The notes under the pieces are model-generated. The model did not search any database. It was not told where the DNA came from and saw only the letters and a list, made by a program, of their open reading frames with translations. Made by a program: the position numbers and the translations under genes. Below are positions 1 to 27,207 of a DNA stretch of 64,000 nucleotides, one piece after another. This DNA is from Azolla caroliniana. Lineage: Eukaryota; Plantae; Polypodiophyta. The DNA is taken from NCBI GenBank assembly GCA_043228905.1, contig JBHGNT010000008.1, positions 7,874,001 to 7,938,000 on the forward strand. Reading direction: 5' to 3'. How positions within the stretch are numbered: the first letter of the stretch is position 1; each line of letters opens with the position of its first letter.

Positions 1-751
1 CTGAAACTCGAAAATATGTTATGTGCACAAAAATGGTTACCTGAACTGAACACCAATGCATAGATTGAATTTCATTCTGCTGCTTGAAAGTATAATTCTC
101 TGCGAAATCTACTACTGAGACTACTACATCATTTGGGAAATCAGATATGCAAGTCTTAAACTGATGGGCCTGCCATGAATAAATGAAGTTGTGTTTAATG
201 AACTTTCCTAGAGATACTACAAACAGAGACACCAAATCCCTTGGTTTAAGCATCTTCCGAACTAGATCCTTTCTTTTACACACCTTTCCTTCGAAATTGG
301 TGTTCACTGACTCAAATAACTTCACAGAGATCAATATTTCACTACTCAATTCATTTGGACACCACCTAAATCTAGTAGGGCCACAATCTTGACATAAACC
401 CATGACACATTTATGAATATGGAAGATAGCGTCAGTTTCTCTCGGACACAATATTGAATCTAATAAATAACTCATGGAAGAGATAACATGCTCAGATGAT
501 TTACACTCCTCTTGCGGGCTTGATCGACAGATTGGGCACCCACATGTGCAAACTGTATTAGTTAGGGATGCGCTATGGTGACGTAGTAGATTAACAGAGT
601 CCTTCAGAAAACCCATCTGTACATGGTAAATGCAACAACATGTGTATCGATCCTTTAAGCGTCTCACAAAGTGTGGCTTAAGAGACTCGAATGTTCGTAG
701 TTGAACTTTGATAGTTGGATGCATTCGTTTGAACCTAATAAATAAATCGAC
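1..751 (-). CDS. Sola2-like DDD transposase, copy 1, exon 2 (runs off left edge)
   Basis: Manual translation from 751 downward gives 250 codons with no stop: VDLFIRFKRMHP..LKPHFVRRLKDRYTCCCIYHVQM..CTCGCPIC..CVMGLCQDC..FIKHNF..VVSVVDFAENYTFKQQNEIQSMHW. A CAG acceptor precedes it at 752-754. It is absent from the ORF track because it has no stop in the window. The Sola2 label rests on recalled motifs. Confidence 0.85.
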
Positions 752-765
752 CTGCGTAATAAAGG

Positions 766-2075
766 GGAATTAGTTATTCTCGTAACTAGCTAACTATCCT
801 AGTAGCTAATTAGCTATTCTAGTAGCTAGTTAGCTATTCTAGTAGCTAGTTAGCTATTCTAGTAGCTAATTAGCTATCATGGTAGCTAATTAGCTGTCCT
901 AGTAGCTAATTAGTTGTCCTAGTAGCTAATTAGCTATCATGGTAGTTAATTAGCTGTCGTAGTAGCTAATTAGCTATCATGGTAGCTAATTAGCTGTTCT
1001 AGTAGCTAATTAGCTATCATGGTAGCTAATTAGCTGTAGTAGTAGCTAATTAGCTATCATGGTAGCTAATTAGCTGTCCTAGTAGCTAATTGGTTGTCCT
1101 AGTAGCTAATTAGCTATCATGGTAGCTAATTAGCTGTCGTAGTAGCTAATTAGCTATCATGGTAGCTAATTAGCTATTCTAGTAGCTAATTAGCTATTCT
1201 AGTAGCTAATTAGCTATCATGGTAGCTAATTAGCTGTCGTAGTAGCTAATTAGCTGTCCTAGTAGTTAATTAGTTGTCCTAGTAGCTAATTAGCTATCAT
1301 GGTAGCTAATTAGCTGCTCTAGTAGCTAATTAGCTATCATGGTGGCTAATTAGCTTTCCTAGTAACTAATTAGCTATCATGGTAGCTAATTAGCTGGTCT
1401 AATAGCTAATTAGCTATCATGGTGGCTAATTAGCTTTCCTAGTAACTAATTAGCTATCATGGTAGCTAATTAGCTGGTCTAGTAGCTAATTAGCTATCAT
1501 GGTAGCTAATTAGCTGGTCTAGTAGCTAATTAGCTATAATGGTGGCTGATTAGCTTTCCTAGTAACTAATTAGCTATCATGGTAGCTAATTAGCTGGTCT
1601 AGTAGCTAATTAGCTATCATGGTAGCTAATTAGCTATCACGGTGGCTAATTAGCTGTCCTAGTAACTAATTAGCTATCATGGTAGCTAATTAGCTGGTCT
1701 AGTAGCTAATTAGCTATAATGGTGGCTAATTAGCTATCCTAACTAATTAGCTATCATGGTAGTAGCTATTGAGAGTAGCCAGTTACCTATGTAGTAGCTA
1801 TCATAGTAGCTAATTAGCTATCATGGTAGCTAATTAGCTTTCCTAGTAGCTAATTAGCTGGTAATAACGAAATAGCTAACTAGCTACCATGATAGCTAAC
1901 TAGCTAGCAGTACAACTAATTATCTGGTAGTACCTAAATTAGCTATTGAGAATAGCTAATTAGCTATCATGGTAGTAACTATTGAGAGTAGCTAGTTACC
2001 TATGTAGTAGCGATCCTAGTAGCTAACTGAGGTAAATGTAACTGATAAGCTAATTAGCTTTTCTGCTAACTGAGC
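766..2075. repeat. Intronic 20-bp minisatellite built on the palindrome TAGCTAATTAGCTA
   Basis: About 48 in-register 20-bp units at 781-1740, mostly alternating agtagctaattagctatcat / ggtagctaattagctg(t)cct, decaying to about 2075. It lies inside GT-AG intron 752-2127. Confidence 0.95.
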
Positions 2076-2127
2076 TAATTAACTTTCCGAGTAGAGTCAA
2101 AACAAATGTTGAGATAAATGTAAATAC

Positions 2128-2877
2128 CTGAGGTACATCAAGAAGATGAATGGGATGCTCCTCGTATTGATTTCTTCCAACACGTTTCCTGCATAAATCC
2201 TTTTTATTGGGTGAAACCCTACTCTCATTAGTCCAAAATATTGTGATTACATCCTTGATTTCAAATGTTATGGGTGTCATTGGCTTACATCTTGTAGTTA
2301 GCTTTAGTAGACTAGTTCCTTCACCCGAGGAAATTATACGGTTCATTGTATTGTACACTGTTTTTCTACTAACACCAATTACCTTAGATAGCTCACTGAT
2401 GTTTATATCGTCAACATCACTATTAAGTAACATCATTAGACTAGACCTTTTTAAGACAAGATCATCTTCTGATCTGCTCATGGATACGAAACTATTACGA
2501 AGATTATTTACTAAAATAGATGATATGTTTGCATTAAGACCATCACAATCAACTAAGTCCTTTATCGATGGATCATTACATATTCCATAAAGTACTACCT
2601 TCTTTTCTTCATTGCTGATGTGCTTGGTTTGAACATTGAAATAGTCTACAACCTTTCTCTCTATGATGGTAGTCGCATTACTTACATTCTCAGCTAAACT
2701 ATCCTTACCTTTACTGAGTGTGGCTTTCGTATCCTTCAACAATTGACGATGTTTCCTTTTTTTTTCTGCCCAATAGTTTCGTATGGCTTGTTGTGTCCTG
2801 ATAACATCATCCCTATCCTTATGATCATTGAGGGGTAATTCTAAACACCCTTCTTCCCCTTCCATTTGGCTAGACAT
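2128..2877 (-). CDS. Sola2-like transposase, copy 1, exon 1
   Basis: ORF 2050..2877 has an HTH-like segment (ISELSKVIGVSRKTVY) and FW...RVSPNKKD. A CAG|GTATTT donor at 2128/2127 splices in phase 0 to exon 2. Homologous to 31105-31416. Confidence 0.8.
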
Positions 2878-3179
2878 GTTAAAACCCTAAATTTCTAGAA
2901 AAAAAAACAAGTATTAAAGATGGCTATGGGCAACAACAATACACAAAAATATTCCACACAATACACAAGATTAGACACAACAATACACAAGATAATCAAT
3001 AGACAGAAAAGTTATTGCAATCCAAGACCGAACAGTAGAGGAATTCACTCTGTTGGATCCAACAGTTGAGGAGGCGATCCAAGACCGACCAATGGCAACA
3101 ACTGAGTGTAGAATGTTGCCATTGGATGAGTGAACTCCGTCAAATCGAAATGTGGAAGCAATCCGGGACTGGACAGTAG

Positions 3180-3950
3180 TGGCAACTGAGTATAGAATGA
3201 TGGCAATGGAGGAGAGAACCCCGTCAGATTGAACAGTTACCGATGATGCTTGAAACGCACATAGAAGGCACTTGAGAATAGAGTGGCATAGAGAAGAGAA
3301 CCCCGTCAGATTGAACAGTTACCAATGATGCTTGAAACGCACAGTAGCGGCCCCTGAGTGAGAGTGGAAAAGAGAAGAGAACCCCGTCAGATTGAACAGT
3401 TACCAATGATGCTTGAAACGCACAGTAGTGGCCCCTGAGTGAGAGTGGAAAAGAGAAGAGAACCCCGTCAGATTGAATAGCTCTTTGATTATGCTTGGAA
3501 CGCACAGTAGCAACCCCTGAGTGTAGAGTGGCAAAGAGAAGAGAACCCCGTCAGATTGAACAGCTCTTTGATGATGCTTGGAACGCACAGCAGCGGCCCC
3601 TGAGTGTAGAGTGGCACAGAGAAGAGAACCCCCTCAGATTGAACAGCTCTTTGATGATGCTTGGAACGCACAGTAATGGCCCCTGAGTGTAGAGTGGCAC
3701 AGAGAAGAGAACCCCTTGAGATTGAACAACTCTTTGATGATGCTTGGAACGCACAGTAATGGCCCCTGAGTGTAGAGTGGCACAGAGAAGAGAACCCCGT
3801 CAGATTGAACAGCTCTTTGATGATGCTTGGAATGCACAGTAGTGGCCCCTGAGTGTAGAGTGTCACAGAGAAGAGAACCCCGTCAGATTGAGCAGCTCTT
3901 TGATGATGCTTGGAACGCACAGTAGCGGCCCCTCAGTGTAGAGTGGCGGC
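3180..3950. repeat. ~83-bp tandem repeat upstream of transposase copy 1
   Basis: About 9 copies of gagaagagaaccccgtcagattgaacagctctttgatgatgcttggaacgcacagtag..cccctgagtgtagagtggca. Degenerate precursors extend back to about 3020. Confidence 0.93.
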
Positions 3951-4240
3951 AGGTGGACTCGATAGGGTTTAGCAACAGTGGTAGCAACTAACCCACAGTA
4001 CTCAACTAGAGATGGCCTACGTGATGTGGCAAAGGATCATGCATAATGGACCTAGGAATTTGATATATAATTTATGGTACACATTTATGGTGCACACATC
4101 AATTTATGTTGCACATTTATGGCACTCATTTACATATGTAATTAAAACACTCTAGTATTTTCAATGGTAGTTTTTTGCATACTTAATTTATTAATGATGG
4201 CTTTTTACTAAAATGACTATTTATCAATGGTAGCTTTTTG

Positions 4241-4300
4241 CATAGCTAATTAGCTATGTCAAGGACATAGCTAATTGTTTCCACTCGCATGCTTTCACCC
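4241..4300 (-). other. Putative 5' terminal region of Sola2-like element 1
   Basis: Contains palindrome catagctaattagctatg (4241-4258) and a second half-site. The minus strand from 4300 reads GGGTGAAAGCATGC, resembling GGCTCGAAGCATGC at 32864 upstream of copy 2. Confidence 0.45.
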
Positions 4301-4681
4301 TTGGATAGAATGAATGATATGTGCATGCACTATCATGATTTAGACAACCAATGAATAGAGAGCCTTTTAGAAAGGCACATCTATTCAAGGGGCCTAGGAA
4401 AAGGTATAAATATGAGGCTTAGCTACCCTCATAGAAAATCACGTCGGAAGGCTGCTGTCGTAGACACCGGTGGTGCGGGCTAGGCTTTCGTCTCGACGAT
4501 CGTGTTTATCTCTTCCAAGGTATTAGTCATCCTAATATCCGGCGGTATGGGACGTTAGTGGTAGGTTGGCTATGTCTAGATCATAGCTCGGGGGTGGTCG
4601 GGTGGAACGGGTTCTTCTATCCAATCTATTTTCTTCCTTTTTACTTGATTTGGTCTATTGATTAGTAATAGACTCTTAACA

Positions 4682-5597: not shown

Positions 5598-6474
5598 CTG
5601 GCACTAGTTCCCTCTTCGTCGCTATTTGTCCCACCGTGCATCTTGCACCACGCATTTGAAAATGCACACATTGTCGCTAACCGCTTTCGGAAACACGTTT
5701 GAACATACGTTTGTTGCGTATCCTTTTGCGACGTCCTCTCGCACAACATCACCGTGTTGCATTCCTCGACCTCGACGGCTTCCAATCAACATCACCATTT
5801 CCCGTACATTGTCCATTTGATTTCTCGCACATTTTGTCGTTGCCATGTCTTTCCCACATAGTATTCTTCGACTTCGTCTCCAAAGGGGGGTTGCCTTAGT
5901 GGTCGCCAAAAAGTGTTGTAGCTTTTTAGGGTTAGGGATGACGATTATGATAGCATGATGATAATGATGGTTGTGATGATGGAGATAAGAATTGTGGAAT
6001 TGATGAGGATGGGATGAGCATCGAGAAGCATTGCGGGGTGGGGGGTGGTGCCTAGAATGGCTCCACTCCCCTCCTAAGGGGGTTCAACGTTAAGGGGGAG
6101 GGAAGAGAGAGAGATGATGAGAGAGAGAGAGAGATTGAGAGAGAAATGGTTATTGTCTTCATTCATTCCCCATAAGGGGTTAAATAGGTACAAAGGGTTA
6201 GATACACAAGGGTGCAAGCCCTTTGGGCATTCACACCTGACCACTCACTCACACCTCTTTGTATCCACCACACTCACACTTACATTCACACCCATAATCG
6301 TATAACATTACACATACATATCAATACATTACATCTTTCACCCTCACTTATCACAGTTATCAATCACTCGTACATCTCATACGGTAACACACCTCACTCA
6401 ATTGAAGAAGGATTATATCACTGAACTAAAGTCACGATATGAACAAGTTTATGATATGAAACATGTCCTAAGCA

Positions 6475-9400
6475 ATGAGGTAGGAGATGTCTTTGCATGT
6501 GCATTTTCATGTGAACTCGATGGTGGCATTGAAGTTGATTAGGAAGATATAGAGGGTCCAACACTACCATGAAGTCTGAGGGTACCTCTCATATTGAAAT
6601 CCCAACTAAGACATCTGTGTTGACTCAACAAATTGCAAAACAAAGAGCCACACTAACAGAAATGCATAAAGAGAGATTGTTGCGTTGTATAGCTTCCATG
6701 TAAACAAAAATGCAAGCATTGCATGCCGATTTGGAAGAAGTTTCATCTGATGAGATGGCGGTAGAGAAACAATTCACATCTATGTGGAATACATACGAAT
6801 GGATTGCATCCACAATCCAAAATTCTGAAAGAGATGTGTTGAAAGAGGAGTTGAAGAAGGAGCTCACAAATATGGGTACTCATCTAGAAGCACAGAAGAA
6901 AAATCTAGAGACATGGAGGTCTTCTCGTTCTGAAATTGATGAACAGTTAAGAATCTAACATGTTTGATGAAGGGTATAAAAGAGAAAGGTTTAGATACTA
7001 TGTGTCTAGACGTAGTTGAGCACCCCGCTTGCATGGAAAGTACAATTACAAGTATTACTATATCACGGTAATGGTTTATATTTTTCCTTTTTGACCTTTT
7101 ATGGTATAAAATATCATTGCTGCTAATATAGTGTATGTTGTTTCTCGTTTCTAAAGGTGTTTATTCTGTGGGATTGGATTCAAGCTTGAGCCTATGGATG
7201 CTATCATTACACCATGCTTGCACACATATAATTTGTTATGCACTAAGTACCATTTCGAGAAAGAAAATATATGTTTGGGCTGTAAAAGTACAGTTGGAGC
7301 TGAATGATACATAGCTTGGGGTTTGAGAGTACACTCCTATGGTATGTGATTAAGCATTATGCAATTTTTATACTACGATTTTATAATTTTACTTTTGGTT
7401 CTGTTCTTATACCTATGAGTATTGTTCCCTCAAGATCCTTTATTCATGATTCAATATTAACATTACCAATTACATTGTACTTTTTGTGTCCACTTGACTT
7501 AGGCTTTGCATGACCAAACAAATAGGGACGAAGGTCTTGTTTGTTTAGTACTAACATTGTTTATTACCACATGAAATATCGACTTTTTGTGTCCATATGG
7601 TTCAGTATTGTGCCCTCAAGTCCTTTTTTTGTTGATTAAGTACTAACAATACTGATTACATTGTATTTCTTGCTGATCAGTTGATTAAGTATTGATTATT
7701 TAATACTAAAGGTCTTAATTGTCCACTAGACTACTTGTATTAGTACTAAATTGTTCATTACATTGTACGTTTTGTGTCCACTTGACTTAGGCTCTACATG
7801 ACCGAACAACACCACATGAAGGTCTTGGCTGTTTAGTACTAACATTGTTCATTACCACATGAAATATCGACCTTTCTGTTTCCAGGTGGTCCAGGTGGTT
7901 CAATATTGTGCCCTCAAGACCCTTTTTTGTTGATTAAGTAATAACAATACTGATTACATTGTATTGCTTGCTGATCAATTGATTAAGTAATTATTATTTA
8001 GTACTGAAGGTCTTAATTGTCTATAATTTGGACTACTTGTATTAGTACTAAATTGTTCATTACATTGTACATTTTGTGTCCACTTGACTTAGGCTCTGCA
8101 TGACCGAACAACACCACATGAAGGTCTTGGTCGTTTAGTACTAACATTGCTGTTTACTGATTATAATGTAGTCCTTCGTGATTAGTTGAATCCGTACTGA
8201 TTATTTAATACTTAAGGTCTTAAATGTCCACTTTATTCAGTACTAATAATATTTGTAATATTGGACTCATGTTATAATATGGACTCTTATAATATGTATT
8301 CTTATAATATGAATGTTGTAGTATCTAGCAACACCATGACAGGGAAGGTAATTGACCAACCAACCCCCGCAATACTACGTACAGAGTTTGCTGCTAATTC
8401 CAAAGTCCACGGTCGTTCCTTAGTGATACCTGATGAAATTTATGATGAAGATGAATGTATGAAAAAGGCCATTAGAACAGTTGAAGATGTGTTGCTTCAA
8501 ACAAATTCTCCTAGCTCGGCACGCCCTGATTGTGTGAATGGTAATGCTAATTGTGTTTGCACTTCTAAGTTCTGAAATGTTGGTATATTTCTAATTTCTT
8601 ATGTTTCTATCATAAAGCCTACGAAGAAGCGTAATGTTGCAAGAAAATTGTATGGAAAGAGGAAGAAATGCAAAGTTGATTGTTGTGGTGGGTCATATAA
8701 ATTCTCACAAACTTTGAGAGTTATAAAGTTATCTTTGTTAGACTAATACCACATACTTTTTTTTTTAGACAAGGAAGAAAAGATTAATGAAAATGGAGAT
8801 ACCAATTCAGAGCCACAATATGAAGAAGAATTTACTCACTTCCAGGTACACGTTCAGAACCCTCTCATCTAATACTTATTTTGACCATATTACCCTATTG
8901 ACAATAATGTACAAGTGTTGTGAAATCTTGGCATGATCAAGAGCCCCAACTTGAGACTGGCACCATCCCAAGCAATAATGATGAGTGTGAGGCCAATGCA
9001 AACCAGGACTTGCAGCACATGGCAAACACAATCATTTGCAAAGACTCATCTACAAAAGATCAGGATGACGATGTAACAGTTGGTAAAAATTTGTCCCTTA
9101 ACCTTAAACATTTGGCTAGGTGCCTTCACTATTTCAGAATGTGAATTGATCTAGTTCTTGTATCCCTCTATTTTATTTAGGAGTAGAAGAACGTGGAGAT
9201 TCCCAAATAGCATTAGATGATTCAGGCAGTTTATGGAGAAATCTTGATTATTCAGACTCAAACGCTACCACATATGAGGAATGTGAAATCACCCAAAAAG
9301 AGGAGCTAGAGTGCACAAAGAATGAGGTGACAAGCAACTTATACGAGTCTGTAGGAATGTGAATTTGACCCAAGGAGAGGATCATGGTTGTACAAAGAAT

Positions 9401-9883
9401 GAGGTGTGTGTCCAGAACACCGCAAGTAGCCTTAACTTATGGCAAGATTGTATCATTAAGGAGACTGTAGCAACCACCCAAGAAGAAGAATAGGGTGGTA
9501 CTATGAATGAGGTGTCTTACCAAAACACCGCAAGTAGCCTGCAGTTGGAGCAAGATTGTAGAAAGAACCAAGTGTCTAGCATCATCAACGAGGAGTTTGC
9601 AATGAAGACGACAACCCTAGAAGAGGAACATGTTTGTACTACTAATAAACAATTAGTGCAGAACATCGGTTCTACCCATGAAGAGGAGCTGGGAAATTTG
9701 AAGAATGAGGTGTCCAATGACTTCCAGGAGATTAATGGTAAGACTATCGACCGCATCCTCTTGGAAGTGTGTGCATCTCAGGCAGTTGCAATAGAGCACA
9801 TTGTTCCCTCAAGCTTGGCTTCCCCCTCCAATGATGAATTGCCACTCAGTATTTTACTATCTCGTGGCTTTAAGATGAAGTAG
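6475..9883 (+). pseudogene. Decayed multi-exon gene of unknown function (coiled-coil, basic and acidic segments), convergent with transposase copy 2
   Basis: Coding-like segments at 6710-6958, 8330-8540, 8618-8690, 8769-8845, 8920-9082 and 9181-9883. Several have GT/AG borders (tttag|ac 8768, cag|gta 8845, tttag|g 9180). In-frame stops are present. Confidence 0.5.
7440..8250. repeat. Three ~290-300-bp diverged tandem units rich in TTAGTACTAA
   Basis: Anchor cacttgacttaggc at about 7491, 7779 and 8081, with recurrent tagtacta. Confidence 0.85.
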
Positions 9884-9974
9884 GGTGTGAAATCTGAGAA
9901 GATAGCTTCCAAAATTTGGAGCATTACAAGATCCAGAAAAATAAAACCAAATTTTATTGTATTTAGATTGTTGT

Positions 9975-10580
9975 CTTTAATTGATTACCTGTTTCTTGAC
10001 ACTACTTTGGTTTACTTATCCAAAATGTGAATTTGATACTATTTTAGAACTCATATATTTGAGAATGATCACATTGACACTTGTATGCACACACATGACA
10101 GTGAGAAGATGAGCGATGAGTGGAATGAACACTCCTATCTTAGATATGTCTAGGTTAGTAAACACTTAACACAGTTTAAGTACTAACTTGATATGCATTG
10201 TAATTAGTTGTCTACTACCTTGTGCCACTCAGTAGTCTGAGAGATTGTTGTCTGTAATTGATAGGAATGCTAAGTTATTGATTACCTGCTTCTTGACACT
10301 ATTTTGGTTTACTTGTTATGCACACATGTGATAGTGAGAAAATGATTGATGAGTGGAATGAACATTCCTATCTTAGATATCTCTAGGTTAGTAAACACAT
10401 AACACAGTTTAAGTACTAACTTGATATGCATTGTAGTTAGTTGTCGACTACCTCGTGCCACTCAGTAGTCTGAGAGATCGTTGTTTGTAATTTATAGGAA
10501 TGCTAAGTTATTGATTACCTGCTTCTTGACACTGTTTTGGTTTACTTGTTATGCACACATATGATAGTGAATTTGATACA
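9975..10580. repeat. ~232-bp tandem duplication with partial extra copies
   Basis: Anchor tgattacctg(c/t)ttcttgacact at about 9982, 10279 and 10512. Blocks 10087-10318 and 10319-10560 are near-identical. Confidence 0.85.
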
Positions 10581-11529
10581 TATGAACTCCTAAAGAGTTA
10601 TAGGCATAACATAGTATGTATACTTGAACAAACCTTTGTATTAGTACTATCATTTAACATGTTCAATCTCCCTCAGGAGTGTACCACACACTAGACAAAA
10701 CAAAGTGGATATAATGAAGGAAAGAGTGTGCTATGAATGATGAGTGTTCCTTACTTTGAACATGTGTGAGACAGTGAGAAGAGGAGTAAAACTTGGAATG
10801 ACCACTCCTAACTTGGATACCTCTAGGTTAGTAAAAACTTAACACAATTTGAGTACTAACCAAAGAGATTTTCTACCAAGCACTAGACATTTTATGTAAA
10901 AGAAAAGTACATATCTAAAGCAAAGAGGGATATCGTTAGATTTGTCATTGCAAACTCATAATAATTCAAAAAGATACATATGAAAACCCAAGATGATATA
11001 TTTCCTTTAATTTGTAAGTCAGAGTTTGAATACATGCGAAAGTTACATATGAAGACCGTGTGCCATTCTAAGCATTAAAGAGGGAGACTTCCCCCAATAT
11101 GTGTTCATGTACCTCTTTGGGGACCTTGTAGACAATGTTGTATCCCTTAATCTTGTGCTTTGCTTGAGTCATAGTGAACTTGATTGAGATAATGGCATGA
11201 ACATAGATTATTGCGATGGGTGCATCTTTTAATAATGCATATGTATTCTTGCATTGTGGCAACTTTGCATAGTAGTTGCCATACATGACAAACTCACCAA
11301 CATTGAACATGTTGCCCCAGCCATCCCTCACGACTTCTTCCAATATTGTATTTCCTTGCTTGCACACCACAATGTAGTAGTCTTCAAAATCTTCATTTTG
11401 AGGAGATTTGAGCACCGCAAAATGATCTCCAACTTCCAATAATATTGCCAAGTCCTCACACTGGTTGTAGTAGACAATATTGTCTGAATGTCCGTTTTCT
11501 TGGATATCCACACATTGTTCTATCTCAAG

Positions 11530-12359
11530 CAAGGTTGTTAGGTACGTTAGATACGGTATGGGTACCATATGTATATAATGTATTAATACACGTATAGTAC
11601 CTCCCAATTTAAAAATACGTTAAATACGTTTTTTAATATGTTAAATACTTATAAAATACATAAAATATGTATAGTAAGTTAAATACTTCTAGAATTTGAA
11701 AATTATTTAGTTTTCTAAAAATATATGTAATATTGTAAAAAGCATCTATGTTTACACAATTTCTACATCCTAAAATGCATATAAGAACATTTGAACATTT
11801 CACATCCTAAACTACTTATAATATGGATGTCGACATTCACTTATTCTATAAATCAGCGTGTGTATCACGATGTTCTACTTCAAATTGTAATTATTTATGA
11901 TTATGCCTTCATAGATTGAGGAATCATCTACGATTATCACACTCAGGATAGGTTTTTGTCTACTTTTCTCTATTGTCCATCTTCATCTTCATCTTCATCT
12001 TCATCTTCTTCTATCTTCTATGATTATCACACTCATAGTCAAGAGAGGTTTCTTTCTTCTTTTCTCTTTTTTTTTTCTTCTTCTTCGTCATCCTCATCAT
12101 CTCTTATGTTCTTCTTTCTTCCATCTTTTTTGCTTCGTTTTCACTAAAATCATTTTTTTCTTTTGCTTTTTGTTTGGGTTTTACTTACATTATTTTATGA
12201 ATTCGTATTATACTTGTTTTTTCAAATGTACGTTACATACTGTATTGGACAAATGTACATGACATTTGACTAAACAACATTGAGGTATAGTACGTACTAT
12301 ACAAATTATGAGGTACTATACGTATTAAAACGTTAAATACGGGTACGTAAACAACCATG
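11530..12359. mobile_element. hAT-like MITE (830 bp) inserted in a transposase exon
   Basis: 8-bp TSD ATCTCAAG at 11522-11529 and 12360-12367. TIRs CAAGGTTGTT / AACAACCATG, subterminal TACG/CGTA motifs and a non-coding AT-rich interior. Removing it restores ..KLQKLEIEQCVD.. Confidence 0.88.
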
Positions 12360-12859
12360 ATCTCAAGCTTCTGTAGCTTCCATGGCTCCACAATTGATAG
12401 ATTGGTGCATTCATCCCACGCTTCATCTAAACACATAGAACAAAAGCACGATAAACTGCGGAATAACAATTGTGTTGTGTCCTTGCGACTAAACCCTAAA
12501 ACACAATGGGACTTCCGCATCCCTTTGATGGTTTTACAGCCATACAATTTACTCCTATCCACCTCATTAGCACGAACCTCAATAAACAATCTATTCTTAC
12601 AATCATTTGACATCTTCCATGTGAGCCACTCCACAACATCATGTGCATTTTGTAACTTAGCACCTTTATTATCCAACTGCTCATTTGTAAGAGCACGCTT
12701 GATCACAGCCCCCGCACCATGGTTCTCTCCCTTTCCATGTCTAGACCCGAAGTAGTTCCATTGTATCCTAATGTTTGTCAATGAGAAGTATCTGGGTGTT
12801 TTGCATGACAGTTAGCCAACAAACATATTTAGTGCATTACTGGAGCGTACAATTCTTAA

Positions 12860-13930
12860 CATGACTTAAACCATAATTATTAAGTCTAATGCACGAGAGA
12901 GGGCAATACTAAGACCCGAATTAGTACAAATGAACGAGAGAGGATAGTACTAATGCACGAGAGAGGACACTAAGTTGGAAATTAGTACGAACAGACAAGA
13001 GAGGAAAGTGGTAAGTTATTAATTAGTACTAATGCATGAGAGAGAACAATCCTAAGTGATAAGTTGGTCTTAATGAACAAAGTTGGACAATACTAAGTTA
13101 TTAATTAGTACTAATGCATGAGAGAGGACAATCCTAAGGTATAAGTTGGTCTTAATGAACAAAGTTGGACAGTACTAAGTTATTAATTATTACTAATGCA
13201 TGAGAGAGGATACTCCTAAGTTATAAGTTTGTCTTAATGAACAAAGTTGGATAGTACTAAGTTATTAATTAGTACTAATGCATGAGAGAGGAAAATCCTA
13301 AGTTATAAGTTTGTCTTAATGAAAAAAGTTGGATAGTACTAAGTTAATAATTAGTACTAATGAACATAGTTGGATAGTACTAAGTTAATAATTGGTACTA
13401 ATGAGAGAGGACAATCCTAAGTTATAAATTAATCTTAATGAACAAAGTTGGACAGTGCTAAGTTATTAATTAGTACTAATGCACAAGAGAGGACCATCCT
13501 AAGTTATAAATTAGTTCTAATGAACAAAGTTGAATACAACTGAGTGATTAATTAGTACAAATGTATGAGAGAGGACAATGCTAAGTATTAATTAATGCTC
13601 GTGCTTGCCGTTCTGCAGTCCAAAGTTATAAATTAGTACTAATGAACGAAAGAGGGTAGTACTAAGTTATTCATTAGTACTAATGCACAAGAGAGCACAA
13701 TGTTGAGATATAAATTAGTACTCATGCTAGCGGGATGACAGTCCTAAGTTATAAATTAGTACTTGTGCATGCGGGATCTAAGTACTTAGTTGTAAACCAT
13801 AGTCAGTATTTGTGCATGTGCAACAGAGAGGACAATACTATGGTGTAAAATAAGGATACATTACAAGGCATGAACCTTAATTAGTACTTGTGCACCTAGG
13901 AGGACAATACTAAGTTGTAAATAATGTCTA
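12860..13930. repeat. Intronic ~41/82-bp minisatellite with TTAGTACTAA palindrome
   Basis: Anchor taatgaa at 13071, 13153, 13235 and 13317 (82-bp period, two ~41-bp subunits). It lies inside intron 12792-14142. Confidence 0.92.
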
Positions 13931-14613
13931 CTTAACACGGTTATTACCATAATCAGTACTAGTGAATCTAGGAGGGGAGAACGAAATGGCCAATCAGTTC
14001 AAATTCACATTTCAAGACAATACTGCTTCATGTAGTAGGATAATTACTAATTGTATTTTATACAAACATTTATAAGTACTATGGAGTATTACCAAAATAG
14101 ACTTCCATTTATAAGTAACAAACATATGGATTATTTCCTCACCTTGCAATGAAGTAGAAGGACCAAGCCACCTTAAATTGCGAGGCAGCACCATCAGACC
14201 AGACCCAATGGCGATTAAAGTTAACACCCAAGGACAATAAATCTGCGTGGTGAAGCTTAAAACAATGTTGAACAAATAACGTATCATGCTTTTTATCATC
14301 TGAAATGTAGAATATTGATTTCATATGTAACTCTCTAGTAGCAAATATGTACAAGTATTGTACATTGGTCATTGTACCAATGCATTGACTGAACCTCATT
14401 TTGAACTTTAAGTGTATAGTTCTCTGCAAAGTCAATAACAGATACCATACTCTAAATATTTCCATCTCACAATATGACAATTATCTACATCAAGCTCCTG
14501 TCCACAAAATAACGGTTGTGGGCATGTTGGCATAAAAGGCCGACTCCTTCCAAATTGTGTCCGTCCGAGTGTGAACTCGTTAATAAGTTAGGTCTTAGTA
14601 TATAAGCAAATAC

Positions 14614-17600
14614 TGTTAAGAAAACGTGAAGAAGGCACTCGAGCTCTTCTTATGTGCGCGGCGGATCGTAGTGTGCTGGATCGTTAGCGTGCTCTAAACA
14701 GACAGAGAAAGGAAAGGGGACTTACCTCTGTAGTAGCAAAATGGTTTTCTTCTATTACATGTAGAGCTCAACTTGCTCTTGTCAGTCTTCTGGTCTCTCG
14801 CTCTCTCTCAGAGTTCTCTGCTCACTATACTCTGTTTTTTCTTACTACTACTTTCTATTCACTCACACTTACTTTTACCTAAGTCATAAGTTATTACACA
14901 TGCAGCTAATTAGCTGTCAGTCGCTAAATAGCTGTTCACTAGCTAATTAGCTGTCACTAGCTAAATAGCTGTTTTACCTTTTTGTTCACTAGTAGCTAAA
15001 TAGCTACTATAGCTTATTTCTCATAAGCATCACATACCATGTTGAGCTTGCTTCTCAACACTCCCCCTCAAGCTCAACTTATTCTTGCTTGAGGTTCTCT
15101 TCAATCTTCTTTTCCATTTTGCTTTTTAGCCATCTCATCAATGTTTACAACTCCCATCATGTTCCGAAACTGTGTATGTTTTTCCACACTCGATCCCTTC
15201 GTAAGGATATCAGCAACCTGCTGATTTGTATTCACATACACCAGATCAACTTCTCCTTCAATCACTTTTTCTCTAACAAAGTGATAATGCACCTCAATGT
15301 GCTTTGTTCTTGCATGGAACACTGGGTTCTTTGCAAGCTGAATGCTGCTCATATTGTCACACCAGATTGTGACAACACCATCTATATATACTCCCAGATC
15401 AGCAAGCAGTCTTCTGATCCATACTTCTTCACATGTGGCTATTGCAGCCCCTCTATACTCAGCTTCTGTACTGGACAATGCAACAGTAGCCTGTTTCTTG
15501 CTACTCCATGAAATTCCTGCACTTCCCAAGGTAAACATGTATCCACTTGTGGATCTCCTGTCTGTTTGGCTTCCAGCCCAATCAACATCTGTATATCCTT
15601 CCAGATTTATGTCTAGATTAGCCCTGTAAAATAGTCCAATGTTCTGAGTTGCTTTTACATACCTCAGAATCCTTCTGATGCAGTCCAAATGTGGCTTTGT
15701 TGGCTGTTGCATAAACTGGCTGACTAATCCAACAACATAGCTCAAATCAGGTCTTGTTATAGTCAAATAAATAAGGCTGCCCACCATAGACCTGTACATG
15801 TTTACATCTTCTATCTTGGCTCCCAAATCAGCCCTCAACTTGCAGTTTTTATCAAGTGGTACAGCAATAGGTTTGCATCCAAGCATACCATACTTTTTCA
15901 ACATAGTTGTTGCATACTGTTTTTGCAACATACATATACCACTTTCAGATCTGATGATTTCAATACCAAGAAAATATCTCAGATCTCCCAAATCTTTCAT
16001 ATGAAACTGCATTTCCAGATTTTTTTCCAACTTTCTTATTTCATCCACGGAATCTCCTCCAATAATCAAATCATCTACATAAATCAGAATAATAACAATG
16101 CAATCATTTTCACTTTTTACATACAAAGAAGGATCAACTTTTGACATTTTGAAACCAAGATTTTTCAGAGAATCTGAAAGTTCTCTGTGCCATGCTCTTG
16201 GTGCCTGTTTCAGTCCATAGAGAGCTTTTTTCAGCTTACATACATAATCAGGATGTTTCTTATCTTCAAAACCTGGTGGTTGACTCATATACACTTCTTC
16301 TTCCAAGTTACCATGTAAAAAGGCATTTTTTACATCCATGTGATGCAAAATCCATTTTCTGGCTGCTCCTACAGCAAGTAGTGTTCTCAAGGTTGCCATC
16401 TTTGCAACCGGTGCAAAAGTCTCATCATAATCAATCCCTTGCATCTGAGCATATCCTTTTGCAACCAATCTTGCTTTATGTCTACTTACATTCCCATTGG
16501 AGTCATGCTTTGTCTTGTAGACCCATTTGCAGCCTACCACATTTTTCTCTTTTGGTAACTTCACTAAATCCCACGTTTTGTTCTCAGCCAATGCATCAAT
16601 CTCTTCTTGCATTGCATCCATCCATTTCTTCTCAGATTTTGCTTCTTCAAAGCTGTTTGGGTCAGGGATCTGTACCACCTTAGACATATATGCATAGTGC
16701 ATAGCCATATATGTATCATACCCAAATCTTTCCACAGTCTTTTTCTCTCTATCTGATCTTCTCAGTTTCTGATTTGCATTCTTTATTGCCTTTTCCGTAC
16801 CAGGGATTTTCATTTCCTGTATTCCAAGGAAATCATCCAAAGACATATCTGAATCTTCATCTTCCATGTTTTTTGATAGGTCATCCGGGATTTCATACTC
16901 TGGCATTTTCTGTTTTCCTTTTTTGTCATCAGATTTTTTCTGTCCAGTTTTTCCACTCCATGAATTTGAATCAGATTTACCATCTGAGCTTTTTGATGGT
17001 CCAGAACATTCTGTTGATGTTGGACTTTGCTGTCCAACCTTGTCTCCATCTCTGTGACAGTCTTCTACATTTTCTGATCTGTCTTTGTCTTCATTTTGAC
17101 AGTCTTCATCAGTCTCTAGATTCTGTTTTGGGCTGTACCAACTAGCCAACTCATCAAATATCACATCTCGACTTGTCGCAATCTTTTTAGTCACAGGGTT
17201 ATAACATCTGTACCCTTTTTGTTCTTCTGAATATCCAACAAAGATACATTTTTCTGCTTTTGGATCCAACTTACTTCTTACTTCTGCAGGCACATGTACA
17301 TATGCAAGGCATCCAAACACTTTCAAGTGTTGTAAGCTAGGCTTCCTGCCATAAAAACACTCTTCAGGAGTTGCCTCATGTACTCCTGATGTAATACATC
17401 TATTTAAAATGTAATTTGCTGTATTTATAGCTTCTGCCCAATAGTATAATGGCATGTTCTTCTCAGTCATCATTGCCCTTGCTATGTTCACCAAAGTTCT
17501 GTTTTTCCTCTCAGCAACTCCATTTTGCTGTGGAGTATATCGGCATGTGAACTGTCTTCTTATTCCCTGATTACACAAAAAATCAGAAAATTCATTGGAG

Positions 17601-20034
17601 AAATACTCTCCTCCTCCATCAGATCTCAAACATTTTATCCTTGTACCAGCCTGCTTTTCTACCATGCATTTAAACTTACGAAAGCAGTCAAATACTTCAC
17701 TTTTCTCCTTCATGAAGTACACCCATGTCTTTCGTGAACAATCATCAATAAATGTAACATAAAATCTGCATCCACCAATAGATGCATTCTTTGTTGGTCC
17801 CCATACATCTGTATGTACCAAATCCAACAGATTTTTGCTTACATGTCTCTCATGAGGGAATGGCAACCTGTTTTACTTACCATATTGACATGCTTCACAT
17901 ACTTTTCCCATTTCACACTTTTTCAAGTTTGGCAGTCCAGCCACTGCATCTTTTCTCAACATATTCTTTAATGTTTGCATACTTATATGGCCAATCCTTT
18001 TATGCCACATTTCCACATCTGAGATTACACTCGTTCCATTTGCAAACATGGCTGAAATCTGTTTGGGCATTTCTACATCCAAGATAAACATTCTTCCTTG
18101 TCTCTTCCCTTTTGCAATGAGCTTCCCATTCTTTTCTATATAGCATCCACTTTGCTTAAACTTCACTTGCATACCTTGCTCTACAATCTGTCCAACAGAA
18201 ATCAGATTCTTAGCAAGGTTTGGAACATGCATCACATTCAACATATACTTGGTTTTTCCTCTTTCTTCCCACAATGGGATATCTCCAACATGTTTTATTT
18301 GGTGAGTTGTGTCATCACCTGTTTGTACATAACCAGGAACCTCTGGTTCTCTTAAACTCTCAAACCAATTTGCATGTCCAGTCATATGGTTAGATGCCCC
18401 CGAGTCTACATACCACGTAAACTCTTCATTACATTTCTGTGAGCTTTCAGCCACTGCTGCTATCTCATGTTGCACTACAAAACCACCTTCCTTTTCACAA
18501 TCTTCACTAGTAGAGGCATAGTTACTCTGTTGTCCTTTTCCTCTTTTCTCATCATTTTGTTTCTTGTAACATTCAGCCTGTGTATGGCCTGGTTTACCAC
18601 AATACCAGCAGCCATCATCATTTACATAAGTTTGCTTACCTCTACCTTGGTTTCTCCCCCTGCCTCTGTTGTTGTTTCCTCCTCTATGAGCTTGTTGTCC
18701 TCTTCCTTGAAAGCCATTATTATTGGTTCTTCCTGAGCCAAATCTTCCATGGCCTCTTCCTCGGCCTCTTCCGGCATTATTATAGAGGGCTTGCCCCTCG
18801 TTCTCTGAGTTTCCTTTATTTGCATCATCCATCTGATTCCTTTCCTCTACCACAAGCATTGAGACCAGATCTGAAAAACTTGGGGTACTATCCCTTGTGA
18901 GCATAGAAGTTTTAAAACTCTTGTATTGAGGTCCTAAGCCTCTTAAGCATATTTCCACTTTGTCATCATCTTCTATCTTCACATTGATAGAAGCAAGTGA
19001 TTCACATATACTCTTGATTTTTAGGGCATACTCATTTATTGACATCTTACCTTTTTCTAAGGTATTTAGCTCAGTCTTCAACTGTAGCTTTCTAGCTTTT
19101 GTGTTTACTGCAAACAGTTTTACCAAACTGTCCCAAGCTTCTTTTGGGAGCATAGCATCCTGTATGTGCCCAAGCATTGAATCTGAGATGCTGAGTGATA
19201 GCCAATGCATTACTTTCCTTGCCCCTTGATTCCAATCTTTAAATGCCTTAATATGTGCAGCTGTTGCATTCTCTTCTGGGATCTCTGGAGCCTCTTCTAG
19301 GTCTCCTTCAATGTAGTCCCAGTATCCTTTCCCCATCAGAAAGTTTGTCATTCTGAATTTCCACGCCGGGAAATTGTTTTTATCTAATTTCTCTGTGACC
19401 ATTTGGCCTACATTCTCTGCAGCCATTTTTTTCCTTCCAAAAACCAGGGTTTTGCTTTAGTTACTTCAACAAGTAACTTTCTGATTTCTGATCAGCAACC
19501 AGAGAAATAACTTTCTCAGATTAAGGCACTGCTATACTCTTCCTTACGAGCTACTCTGCTCTGATACCATGTTAAGAAAACGTGAAGAAGGCACTCGAGC
19601 TCTTCTTATGTGCGCGGCGGATCGTAGTGTGCTGGATCGTTAGCGTGCTCTAAACAGACAGAGAAAGGAAAGGGGACTTACCTCTGTAGTAGCAAAATGG
19701 TTTTCTTCTATTACATGTAGAGCTCAACTTGCTCTTGTCAGTCTTCTGGTCTCTCGCTCTCTCTCAGAGTTCTCTGCTCACTATACTCTGTTTTTTCTTA
19801 CTACTACTTTCTATTCACTCACACTTACTTTTACCTAAGTCATAAGTTATTACACATGCAGCTAATTAGCTGCCAGTAGCTAATTAGCTGTCAGTCGCTA
19901 AATAGCTGTTCACTAGCTAATTAGCTGTCACTAGCTAAATAGCTGTTTTACCTTTTTGTTCACTAGTAGCTAAATAGCTACTATAGCTTATTTCTCATAA
20001 GCATCACATACCATGTTGAGCTTGCTTCTCAACA
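14614..20034 (-). mobile_element. Copia B: very young full-length Ty1/copia inside the copia A 5' LTR
   Basis: Perfect TSD AATAC. LTRs 14614-15060 and 19570-20034 appear identical except for an 18-bp indel. PBS for tRNA-iMet at 19558-19569 and PPT at 15061-15070. Confidence 0.97.
15101..19426 (-). CDS. Copia B gag-pol polyprotein, interrupted by one in-frame stop
   Basis: ORFs 17873..19426 (gag, CCHC knuckle, DSGAS protease) and 15101..17866 (integrase, YVDD RT, RNase H) are in the same frame. They are separated only by TAA in QYGK*NRLPF. Confidence 0.95.
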
Positions 20035-21814
20035 AATACCTAACATTGTAAAGAGTGACGAGTGGAAGAGAGACGAAGAGACAAAGAACTAATTCTCTAG
20101 TTCTGCGTATTGTATCTCTAAGAGAGAGTGAGAAAGAAGCAATAAAGCTTTCCATTAAAGCTTGCACTGTGTAAGTCCACGCCTATTCTATCTTTCTGTT
20201 TGTGTTGTGTGTTGTTCATAACCGATAACAAATCCATACACGTTTCCGCAAAACGCACTCGTTGTCAACAATTGGTATCAGAGCCACCTTGTTGTCCGGT
20301 GGCAACAGAAAACAGAAGAAGAAGCTGAAAGAAAATACCAGGTCAGAAATTTCAAGTTCACAAAAAGAATATGGCTTCAACATCCGGAGCAGGAGTTGAA
20401 ATCAGAAAATTCGACGACAAAACTTTTGCCCTGTGGAAGGAGATAATGCAGGATGTGCTAATCATCTGAAGGCAGGTCGAAGCCACTAGGCACAGCGAAA
20501 AACCTACCTCAATGACAACCAAGGAATGGAGATCAATGGATGAAATCGCACGCTCCACCATCCGAATGTCCATTTCAGCATGGCGAAAGAAATGATAATG
20601 TTCTCATTGTGGGAGAAGCTACATGCCATTTATGAAAAGAAGTCCTCATCTTCGAAATTGATTTTGATCAAACAGTTGTTCAACCTGAAGATGAGAGAGA
20701 CCGATCCGGGAACCTCCCACATCAACACCTTCAGCCGGGTGTTGTTAGAGCTCTTGTCACAAGTGATCAACTTCGAAGAGGAAGATAATTCCCTTGCACT
20801 CTTATTGAGCTTGCCGGTGAGTTGGGAGGTATTCTGCACCACATACGCCAATAGCCGACTGATCTTGAATCTGGATGAAACAATCGGCCAAGTCCTCACA
20901 GAGGACATTCGGCGAAATCGATGGGACTAACTATCGATGAGTAAGCAGAAGCCCACCACTCAACCGAGTTGTTCGATCGACAGAGTCGAACGAAAGAACA
21001 AGCCGACAGAACCGGTCAACATTACAACCGATCGAAAACGAGGGGAGAATGACAATGCTCGAAGTCGAAAAGAGGTCGATCAAGTGAGTACTACACACAC
21101 TACAAGAAAGTTGGCCACAATATTTCCAACTACTAGTCAATAAAGAGAAAAGAGAGTGCTCCACGATCCTAGCGGAATCGGGGACGTTCCCACTCAATCG
21201 ACTCTCCAATCGGCAACCAGGTCAATGTTACCGACACCCGATCCGAAGAAATCCTCTCCCAAGAGGATTCGATGATAAGATAAGTCCTCTACAGTGCACA
21301 AGCTGCACACACGTGGCTACTAGACTATGGTGTCACATTTCAGGTGACCCCGAACATTGAATGGTTTTCGAACAATTCAGCCGACGCCAGCGGCACAATC
21401 CAACTAGGAAACAGACAAGAGTGCAAGATAACAGGAATTGGAGAAGTTCCCATCAGATTACCAAATGGCAACATAATAACCCTGCACCATGTTCAGCACG
21501 TATCCAATCTAAAGAGGAGTCTAGTCTCCATCAACATGTTAGCCAAAGATGGGTACAAAACAACTCTACATGAGTTGACATGGGTGATCAACCGAGGAAA
21601 CCTCAAAGTCGGGAGTGGGTAGAAGTACCATAATCTGTACCCATTGATGGCGATCAACCTTGAAGGGGTAGTGAACATAGCCAAAAAGACCGACCCAAAC
21701 CTATGGCATGGCCGACTCGGCTATATGTCACAAGCCGGACTTGATCGGCTGATGTTGGTTGGCTACATCCCAAAACTCTAGGCAAAGATGAACTTCTGTG
21801 AGCATTGTCGATAT

Positions 21815-22680
21815 GGGAAATAGACCCGAAGTCTGCACTCTCTCCATTACGAGATGGTACGACAGTCCCTAGATCTCGTGCACATAGACATCAATGGGCC
21901 CATGCCAGAGCGATCACTAGGAGGCTCCTGGTACTTCATCACATTTGTAGATGACTGTACACGAAAAGGTTGGGCAAACTCCATCAAGTCCAAAGATGAA
22001 GCACTCAAGGTCTTCATTCGATAGATATCTCGGAAATAGACCCGAAGTCTGCATTCTCTCCACTACGAGATGGTACGACAGCCCCTAGAGCTCGTGCACA
22101 TAGACATCAGTGGGCCCATGCTAGAGCGATCACTAGGAGGCTCCCGGTACTTCATCACATTCGTAGATGACTATACACGAAAAGGTTGGGCAAACTCCAT
22201 CAAGTCCAAAGATGAAGCGCTCGAGGTTTTCATTCGATGGATATCTCGGAAATAGACCCGAAGTCTGCACTCTCTCCACTACGAGACGGTACGATAACCC
22301 CTAGAGCTCGTGCACATAGACATCGGTGGGCCCATGCTAGAGCGATCACTAGGAGGCTCCCGGTACTTCATCACATTCGTAGATGACTATACACGAAAAG
22401 GTTAGGCAAACTCCATCAAGTCCAAAGATGAAGCGCTCGAGGTTTTCATTCGATGGATATCTCGGAAATAGACCCGAAGTCTGCACTCTCTCCACTACGA
22501 GACGGTACGATAGCCCCTAGAGCTCGTGCACATAGACATCAGTGGGCCCATGCTAGAGCAATCACTAGGAGGCTCCCGGTACTTCATCACATCCGTAGAT
22601 GACTATACACGGAAAGTTTGGGCATACTCCATCAAGTCCAAAGATGAAGCACTCGAGGTCTTCATTCGATGGATATTTGA
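21815..22680 (+). repeat. Four tandem 216-bp (72-codon) copies of the integrase N-terminal segment in copia A
   Basis: Anchor gacccgaagtctgca at 21823, 22039, 22255 and 22471. Confidence 0.93.
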
Positions 22681-23189
22681 AGTGGAGAACCAATCGAGAT
22701 ACAGAGTGAAGACACTCCGATCCGATAACGGAGGTGAGTACACCTCTAGAGCAGTCAAAGAGTTCTTGTCCGGAAAAGGGATCCGACACCAAAAAACCGT
22801 TCCATATACACCCAATTCTTCAGCAAGTCGGACTGAAGTTGGAATTCTGAGCCGAGGCATTGTAGACAGCAGTGTACCTAATAAATCTGGCGCCATCACG
22901 AGCAATCAAGCTCGAAGTGCCACAGGCACTATGATCAGGCAAACAGCTGACCTACGATAGGCTCCGTATATTCGGATGCGAAGCCTACACATTCATTCCT
23001 AGGGACAAAAGGACAAAGTTGGCACCTCATGCAACGAAGTGCATATTTCTTGGTTATGGAACCGATGGGGACTTCCGCTACCTGCTATGGGACCCCGAGA
23101 ATAGGAAACTGATCCGGAGTAGTGACGTGGTCTTCAATGAAGACTCTATCTTCTCTCAGAGGAACCAACATAAAATAATTGTTAAGAAG

Positions 23190-26100: not shown

Positions 26101-27207
26101 AAGATATTATCTTCATGGAGGACAAGACTCTTGCCGACTGGGAGTCGGAGAAGAAGATAATGAACTCCGATGAGATTCGGACACACCCGGCTAAGAGCCG
26201 GTTGACACTCGAGGAACCAGCCGGTTACGGTAAGGATACCGAACCGGCAGAAGAAGAAGTAGAGGAAGCTGAAATCAGAATCGGATTCGGATGAAGAACA
26301 AATAGTGGAGCCGGTTGCCGAAGGCCAAAGACGAAGATATCCTCTCAGAGAGAGAAGGGCCCCTCGGAGATTTCCGGATACAGAGCATGTGCTGCTGACC
26401 GATGACGGAGAGCCAGAAAGCTTCGAAGAAGCGAAGGATGACACCCACAACCGCAAATGGTTAAGTGCCATGCAGGATGAGATGGATTCCTTGCATGAGA
26501 ACCATACATATGAATTGGTGGAGTTGCCAAAAGGAAAGCGGGCACTCCGAAACAAGTGGGTGTACAAGTTGAAATCGGGAGATGCCGGCAACCCCCCGAG
26601 ATACAAAGCCAGGATTGTGGTGAAGGGGTTCCAGCTATGGAAGACCCGGTGAGAACCGGATGAGGAGTACCCGGCAACGGAAGACCCGGTGAGAACCAGA
26701 TGACGAGTACCCGGCAAGAGCCGGATGGCGAAGGCTCGGTGAGAAGTGCTCACTGGATGAAGGGACATATTCGTAAATATGTTTTCTGAGAGTCCATTGG
26801 GGCTATATTTGTAAATAGCCGAAAAGTCATATTAGTATAAATATGACTTAGGGCAAACTTAGCGTGAAAGTAGTCATCATTCTTGTTGGTGCAAGATTAG
26901 AGTGCATTACTATGTACAGAGAGAGAGAGAGAGAGGAAGAGGTCGTTGCCTCGGTTGTAACCGCTGCCTGTGGCAAAGATAGCAAGCTCGAGGTCATTGC
27001 TTCGGTGCTTTACTATTGTACATTGTGAAATAGTGATAGTTTGCAATCTGTGGGCTGCCGTGGTTTTTCCCTAGTTTGGGTTTTCCACGTTAACATCCCG
27101 TGTACTCTTCTCTTCATTGTGTCGTGCGTTCATTACCCATTTTCTGTGTTTGATCCTAGGCTTAGTTGTGGCTGAGTGTTGTTCATTGGGTGCGTGTGTT
27201 CCTGACA
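23190..27207 (+). mobile_element. Copia C nested in copia A, with RT/RNase H/PPT deleted
   Basis: Perfect TSD AGAAG. 5' LTR 23190-23975 has a 40-bp tandem repeat; PBS(iMet) at 23979. Decayed gag-PR-IN at 24006-26632 jumps from RT-start YKARIVVKGFQ into the 3' LTR repeat array. LTR remnant at about 26633-27207. Confidence 0.93.

Follow-up and report, generated by a model that had tools for sequence, protein, structure and literature searches.

Sola2 DNA transposons have 5'-GRG ends, and the Sola3 group targets TTAA; Sola1 is the Sola type recorded from moss. The Sola superfamily has been little studied in plants. At the superfamily level, with neither subgroup nor structure given, it has been noted in Physcomitrella (PMC10741241), in Azolla and Salvinia (PMC6786969), and in Ceratopteris (table of PMC6890710). 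Ectocarpus contains a Sola-2 family as well as a two-gene Sola1 (PMC12477816), and an AT-rich 4-bp target-site duplication (TSD) of variable sequence is described as a Sola2 trait (PMC3627910, PMC10741241). The anti-silencing protein VANC of the Arabidopsis VANDAL transposons binds short motifs that form tandem repeats within introns and terminal regions of its own family, and combines conserved with repeat-rich variable parts (PMC5735166). Here we describe a 64,000-nucleotide stretch of the genome of the fern Azolla caroliniana (assembly GCA_043228905.1, contig JBHGNT010000008.1, positions 7,874,001 to 7,938,000; hereafter the window), and a transposon lying across its left edge. To judge from its transposase, the element very probably belongs to the Sola2 group, and it holds inside its terminal inverted repeats (TIRs) a conserved second gene, the main feature, which the initial annotation of the window did not include.

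We favor, with a probability of roughly 0.55, the reading that this is a two-gene Sola2 element whose second gene would encode a palindrome-binding, anti-silencing protein, and that the copy in the window is likely inactive. The two-gene streptophyte variant of Sola2 is new, and the presence of Sola in moss and ferns is already known at the superfamily level. The novelty is therefore smaller than the initial annotation implied, because Sola had already been annotated in moss and ferns. Our literature search found no publication describing a RING-type accessory gene in a Sola2 element of plants, although plant Sola2 elements may be listed in Repbase, in the founding article of 2009 or in the supplementary files of bioRxiv 2021.09.26.461848; a search of the supplements of PMC6786969 gave no match.

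The transposase and its lineage

Following the element leftward into the adjoining 10-kb stretch (G000:C8:7864001-7874000, called L031 and numbered on its own; the window is G000:C8:7874001-7938000) completed the 613-codon exon 2 and revealed the 3' TIR and the TSD CCAA, both of which the initial annotation had expected there. The element of the window, which we assign to family A, is complete at 12,012 bp and has the layout of a cut-and-paste transposon (Table 1). The initial annotation had also spliced exon 1 (2877-2128) in phase 0 to a stop-free 250-codon exon at 751, containing Cys clusters and DFAENY..QNEIQSMHW, and both proposals stood when the frame was re-read in the window. Exon 1 (750 nt) runs from ATG to CAG|GT and exon 2 resumes with CAG|GTC at 751, giving 500 stop-free codons inside the window and a spliced transposase of 863 amino acids with a single intron. 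A protein from Klebsormidium nitens aligned to exon 1 as far as the junction and, by eye, crosses it gap-free, and a GT donor was found at the same codon in 17/17 homologous loci where the motif was located, among 82 examined. Transcript evidence across the junction 2128/751 is weak: one contig from a run of a relative, whose RNA status is guessed, skips the intron, with a depth of ~4 and a short side of 21 letters.

The assignment to Sola2 follows the initial annotation and rests on a series of motifs and on catalytic spacing. In common with the published Sola2 transposases (PMC3627910, Additional file 10), the protein contains S-R-x-x-P..K-K-D; F..L-[RK]-P..C-x-C-x-Y-H; H-x-F..Q and, further in the same order, DFAENY..Q-x-E-I-Q-S-x-H-W; I-S-D-D..H-D; S-D-G-A-x-x-Q-[YF]-K and W-x-F-F..H-G-K..D-G-x-G, as well as the D-83-D-41-D spacing and a length of ~860-890 amino acids. 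Short TIRs and an AT-rich 4-bp TSD are likewise shared (PMC3627910). The presumed catalytic residues D465, D548 and D589, spaced by 83 and 41, are conserved at 98-99% in a 131-row alignment. Pfam contains no model classifying the transposases of family A or of family B, the second family present in the window, and the only match on the transposase was HTH_11 in exon 1 (E 5.7e-5, 23.4 bits, under the 25-bit cut-off). We modeled the exon-2 product of the sister copy L001 with AlphaFold2 (predicted local distance difference test score, pLDDT, 90.7). Residues 199-391 of the model match integrase and mariner cores with Z up to 10.0: the RNase H core gave Z ~10 to integrases (rmsd ~3, 142-154 residues aligned) and 9.5 to Mos1, with Foldseek in weak agreement, and no solved Sola structure was among the fold-search matches. 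Residues 487-604 (about amino acids 737-854) match nine BAH-containing chains with Z 6.0-6.7. The dN/dS of the transposase exons was 0.09-0.39.

The proposed plant lineage was supported by a quick tree, for which 100/160 candidate proteins were kept by coverage. Families A and B, whose transposases share 41-68% amino-acid identity depending on the segment, group with Klebsormidium and Calypogeia proteins (Shimodaira-Hasegawa-like approximate likelihood ratio test, SH-aLRT, 100; 14 rows), separate from the clade holding Lineus and Mya. One member of the plant clade comes from a Klebsormidium subtile transcriptome. Two transposases of this clade from Calypogeia fissa and one from Klebsormidium nitens are listed under host proteins, with the annotation unnamed or hypothetical, and the K. 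nitens gene model is fused to a leucine-rich-repeat region.

Table 1. Features of the two probable Sola2-type elements in the window and in the adjoining stretch L031 (own numbering)
Feature	Location	Strand	Remarks
Family-A element, probable Sola2, 5' 4,300 bp	window 1..4300	-	ends GGG..CCC; TSD CCAA both sides
Rest of family-A element	left of window in L031, to L031 2289		
5' TIR, 24 bp	window 4277..4300	-	matches 3' TIR at 23/24
4-bp TSD	window 4301..4304	-	CCAA on element strand
83-bp tandem repeat, 9.3 copies	window 3173..3947		upstream of transposase start
Transposase exon 1, 250 codons	window 2128..2877	-	HTH-like (helix-turn-helix) segment, aa 147-186
Transposase intron, 1376 nt, phase 0	window 752..2127	-	filled by 20-bp minisatellite
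20-bp minisatellite	window 768..1859		in transposase intron; built on palindrome TAGCTAATTAGCTA
Transposase exon 2, first 250 of 613 codons	window 1..751	-	Cys/His clusters; stop at L031 8910
Accessory gene, exons 1-6	L031 2540-6981	+	N-domain, coiled coil, RING-H2, acidic linker
Second array of 20-bp palindromic repeat	L031 4710-6382		intron after accessory RING exon
Last frame, likely last accessory exon	L031 7146-8282	+	13-aa repeats, NIF/FCP1-like domain
Decayed family-B element ("copy 2"), probable Sola2	window 6402..32864	-	split by 16-kb insertion nest 14525-30588
Family-B transposase pieces	window 31635-30589, 14524-14111, 12823-12362, 11508-11060	-	
Family-B accessory remnant	window 6402..7348	+	N-domain, coiled coil, RING 7155-7346; convergent on its transposase
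41-bp tandem array	window 12945..13763		in copy 2 transposase intron; family-B palindrome TAGTACTA

Copies of family A and the state of the window copy

Family A has at least 150 copies of 97-100% protein identity, counted as the best 150 of 1092 candidates. We retrieved 20 of them, those that matched exon 2 best, a sample that leans to intact copies. In all 19 whose two ends both lay within the retrieved sequence, the element starts with GGG, ends with CCC and is flanked by a perfect 4-bp TSD; the GGG..CCC ends of both families fit the GRG rule. The family-A TSDs are 79% A+T, with A or T at the end in 19/19, and across families A and B the A+T content is 78-79%. Mean pairwise divergence among the 20 copies is 0.19% over 750 nt. 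The transposase frame is open in 13 of them and both genes are open in seven, the accessory gene being unparsed in three. The near-identity of at least 150 copies, the low divergence and the many open frames identify family A as the product of a recent burst. With such numbers, defined ends and natural copies in which both genes are open, a Sola2 transposition assay appears feasible.

An older subfamily of family A (509 candidates; L041 1-1600, L121-L150) has ~80% DNA identity and many stop codons, and keeps the NIF domain described below. The window copy itself lies beside or inside a Gypsy-type retrotransposon (L031 3-2183) whose pol frame is open over the 727 codons seen. A perfect 255-bp tandem duplication (L031 8431-8944) spans its transposase stop and 3' region; several other family-A copies align there in two pieces and seem to be without it.

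The window copy had been singled out as possibly active and undamaged among decayed neighbors. Its frame is indeed open, but intactness is not exceptional in family A, and the copy carries nine private amino-acid changes. With 13 nucleotide and nine amino-acid differences from the family-A majority, it departs further than any other of the 17 copies compared. The motifs WSDGAASQFK (14.1-14.5 kb) and HGKG (12.2-12.8 kb), earlier taken from "copy 2" to complete the motif set, belong to family B instead; the window copy's own counterparts, left of the window, are WSDGAASQFK and HDKG. The latter reflects the change G584D in the HGK motif, at a position beyond the window edge that is occupied by glycine in 19/19 other copies, 14/14 published Sola2 rows and 9/9 plant-clade proteins. 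Among 114 aligned homologues, glycine is found there in 100 and aspartate in none. A further change beyond the window edge, D513N, affects a site invariant in the nine plant-clade proteins, with asparagine in 8/113 wider homologues. Because G584D and D513N fall at conserved sites, the window copy is likely inactive, the altered HGK motif being the probable cause.

The second gene and the palindrome arrays

The accessory gene is convergent on the transposase gene, lies inside the TIRs and outside the window, and has at least six exons; its product comprises 618 amino acids if it ends at exon 6. The frame downstream is likely the last exon: a conserved phase-2 donor is located at L031 6942, and no read crosses the junction from exon 6 to this NIF-encoding frame. 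Contigs of runs X1 and X2, from one study of a relative, with guessed RNA status, bridge introns 1-3 with GT..AG ends; the DNA-like run X3 gave no contig skipping these introns. Intron 2 (L031 2839-3247) contains an AT-rich repeat of 13/40 bp in which telobox-like AAACCCTA words occur.

The N-domain of the product spans ~105 amino acids and is modeled in family B with a pLDDT near 90. The RING-H2 of family B has the full C3H2C3 ligand pattern (zf-RING_2 E 4.5e-5, 24.1 bits, cut-off 27.3), and that of family A is weaker (E 0.043). The NIF/FCP1-like domain is above the Pfam cut-off. Active phosphatases of this type have the catalytic consensus DxDx(T/V). The first catalytic Asp is replaced by Glu (E-L-D-K-V) both in family A and in the older subfamily, and two metagenome relatives have D-L-N-G; by its motif, the domain is thus of the pseudo-phosphatase type. 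The accessory gene is under purifying selection, with dN/dS 0.35-0.43 for the N-domain and coiled coil and pN/pS 0.30 for the NIF domain, measured against the older subfamily.

Fold searches with the model of the accessory protein yielded generic coiled coils only, none informative on the N-domain, and an Atlas search with the family-B N-domain gave no usable match. A protein search for the NIF region among longer proteins was likewise without a match. For a suspected link to PMD/Transposase_32, Pfam and PDB sequence searches gave no match, and searches of the same genome were blank, with controls likewise silent. A predicted complex of the transposase exon-2 product with the accessory N-domain, made without alignments, scored 0.00, a value that speaks neither for nor against contact.

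Intact family-B copies measure 12.2-13.1 kb, with GGG..CCC ends and a 4-bp TSD in 9/9 with both ends, and in 10/10 the RING gene lies on the opposite strand downstream of the transposase. The same arrangement occurs in a metagenome set of 80 loci in 51 clusters, whose transposases are ~38-61% identical over the core. Among the 14 distinct clusters that extend 5 kb or more downstream, nine have the N-domain or RING; NIF is present in two further clusters. All 25 matches at E<0.01, obtained with profiles iterated on their own matches, lie downstream on the opposite strand, the N-domain being the most distant. Independent, non-iterated E-values are 3.5e-6 to 4.7e-3 for RING (nine loci), 0.004 and 0.024 for the N-domain (two loci), and 1.5e-15 and 1.6e-11 for NIF (two loci). 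A strict search for GRG ends plus TSD found no TIR/TSD pair in the metagenome loci, so that their element limits are tentative. We conclude that the second gene is very probably a functional part of the element.

Both families also contain tandem arrays of a palindrome of their own. The top 8-mer palindrome core of family A occurs 110 times against a shuffle maximum of 3, and that of family B, unlike it in motif, 19-21 times against a maximum of 4. Family-A palindromes are also found just inside both TIRs (element positions 45, 11942 and 11968). A family-specific motif in noncoding tandem repeats, the layout known from VANC-type systems, is hence present in both families.

Within the window, the family-A 12-bp palindrome is confined to the family-A element and to the long terminal repeats (LTRs) of a Copia-type retrotransposon (14614-20034; LTRs ~14614-15060 and 19570-20034) with long open frames and near-identical LTRs, each LTR holding 2-3 copies. 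Possibly the Copia element hitch-hikes on the accessory protein, or it captured a piece of the minisatellite. The intervals 4680-5900 and 20000-64000 are densely packed with nested, decayed retrotransposons of the Copia and Gypsy types, including a large inverted pair at 43.8-57.0 kb.

Proposed mechanism and comparison with known systems

RNase H-fold transposases use cut-and-paste chemistry with staggered insertion. In the reading we favor, the transposase would use the HTH and the Cys/His regions of its N-terminal part to bind the TIRs, cut DNA with D465/D548/D589 of the RNase H fold, and insert the element with a 4-nt stagger at AT-rich sites, while its BAH-like tail may read chromatin marks. 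The accessory N-domain would dock on intronic and subterminal palindromes and the coiled coil would oligomerize the protein. RING-H2 would ubiquitinate a factor involved in chromatin or silencing, with NIF as a non-catalytic binder of phospho-proteins, and the accessory protein would shield the element from host silencing. Taken on its own, this anti-silencing job, proposed by analogy, falls somewhat short of even odds.

Several observations weigh against this reading. Membership in Sola2 was judged by eye against a printed alignment of 14 rows, and the BAH match lies in the tool's middling Z range and is without sequence support. The accessory N-domain had no useful match among Pfam families or PDB sequences, NIF was not found in the ten family-B copies, and five of the 14 long metagenome clusters showed no accessory match. 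Palindromes exceeded shuffles in only 3/19 metagenome loci, one of them marginal; arrays may be hidden there by short-read assembly or decay, or may not be general. Finally, G>A or C>T changes account for 65 of the 107 differences between family-A copies, as methylated copies would show, so that any protection is partial at best.

The alternatives are less convincing. Placement of the transposase in a different DDE/D group (Sola1, Sola3 or CMC) is highly improbable: no homologue bears a Sola2 label, but motif series and catalytic spacing agree with the Sola2 alignment, and the TSD is a variable 4-mer rather than a fixed one, TTAA occurring in 0/28 TSDs of families A and B. The DUF7869 transposases of the host genome, which we take to be Sola1, have different motifs, lack DFAEN and HGK and gave no tblastn match below E 2, and the transposase exons have no DUF7869 match in Pfam. 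Slightly less remote, yet still improbable, is a captured host gene of no use to the element, with arrays as neutral minisatellites. Host proteins commonly contain RING and NIF domains, Sola2 elements exchange their 3' cargo (PMC3627910), and array length differs among family-A copies (intron 716-1797 nt). Conservation already largely refutes this idea, since the same gene recurs on the same strand and with the same domain order beside transposases as distant as the metagenome ones, has dN/dS well under 1 and yields spliced contigs in a relative. (The host's separate DUF7869 family is itself very abundant, with many identical long open frames; the best 150 of 1179 candidates were scored; L231-L233.)

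The main competitor, doubtful but worth serious attention, gives the second gene the part of a transposition co-factor, comparable to En/Spm TnpA or to the Myb protein of Harbinger. The second gene product would bind subterminal palindromes and join the ends or deliver the transposase, with RING tuning transposase levels. Palindromes directly inside both TIRs and the fixed orientation of a gene accompanying distant transposases would suit such a role, and Harbinger elements also hold two tail-to-tail genes (PMC12477816). However, nearly all family-A palindromes are intronic, kilobases from the ends, and the domain content after RING differs between families. In addition, the published Sola2 elements considered (PMC3627910) have Fanzor cargo or none that is described, and Sola2 transposases therefore seem independent of such a partner.

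A broader version of the favored reading is speculative and should be regarded as unlikely in its entirety. It holds that an ancient, still-expanding two-gene Sola2 lineage in seed-free plants and their algal relatives carries a counter-silencing kit. Its parts would be an undescribed domain that binds DNA at palindrome arrays made by the element itself, a ubiquitin ligase of the RING-H2 type, optionally a decoy phosphatase and, at the end of the transposase, a BAH domain reading histone marks; the Copia element with the same motif in its LTRs would use the kit in trans. If true, the kit would amount to an anti-silencing route separate from VANC and from TnpA, working through ubiquitination. 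The conserved accessory gene and family-specific arrays offer a test case for sequence-specific anti-silencing outside flowering plants by a different chemistry, and the modeled BAH-like tail suggests chromatin-guided targeting.

Among described systems, VANDAL/VANC (PMC5735166) is similar: there too a DNA transposon has an additional gene, short family-specific motifs are tandemly repeated in introns and terminal regions, and the accessory protein unites conserved domains with variable, repeat-rich parts. VANDAL elements are, however, Mutator-like, and VANC has DUF1985 and DUF287, neither of which was detected in the accessory protein by Pfam or PDB sequence searches; conversely, RING-H2 and NIF are not mentioned for VANC in the available part of that paper. 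Sola1-1_Ec32 of Ectocarpus (PMC12477816) is also a Sola element of large size, and an accessory gene on its opposite strand has the proposed role of modifying the element's own chromatin, but it belongs, like the DUF7869 elements of the host genome, to another transposase group, and its accessory gene encodes ParB and a DNA methyltransferase instead of N-domain, RING and NIF. En/Spm TnpA (bioRxiv 10.64898/2026.08.24.746577) likewise is a second element-encoded protein acting on element-specific motifs, whereas its tandem HTH domains, derived from a transposase, have no such match in the accessory protein. Relative to the published Sola2 rows, labeled as animals and amoebozoa, the present clade comes from Klebsormidium, Calypogeia and the Azolla genome, and differs in having an intron that is conserved, a tail resembling BAH and, in place of the Fanzor cargo, a conserved convergent RING gene.

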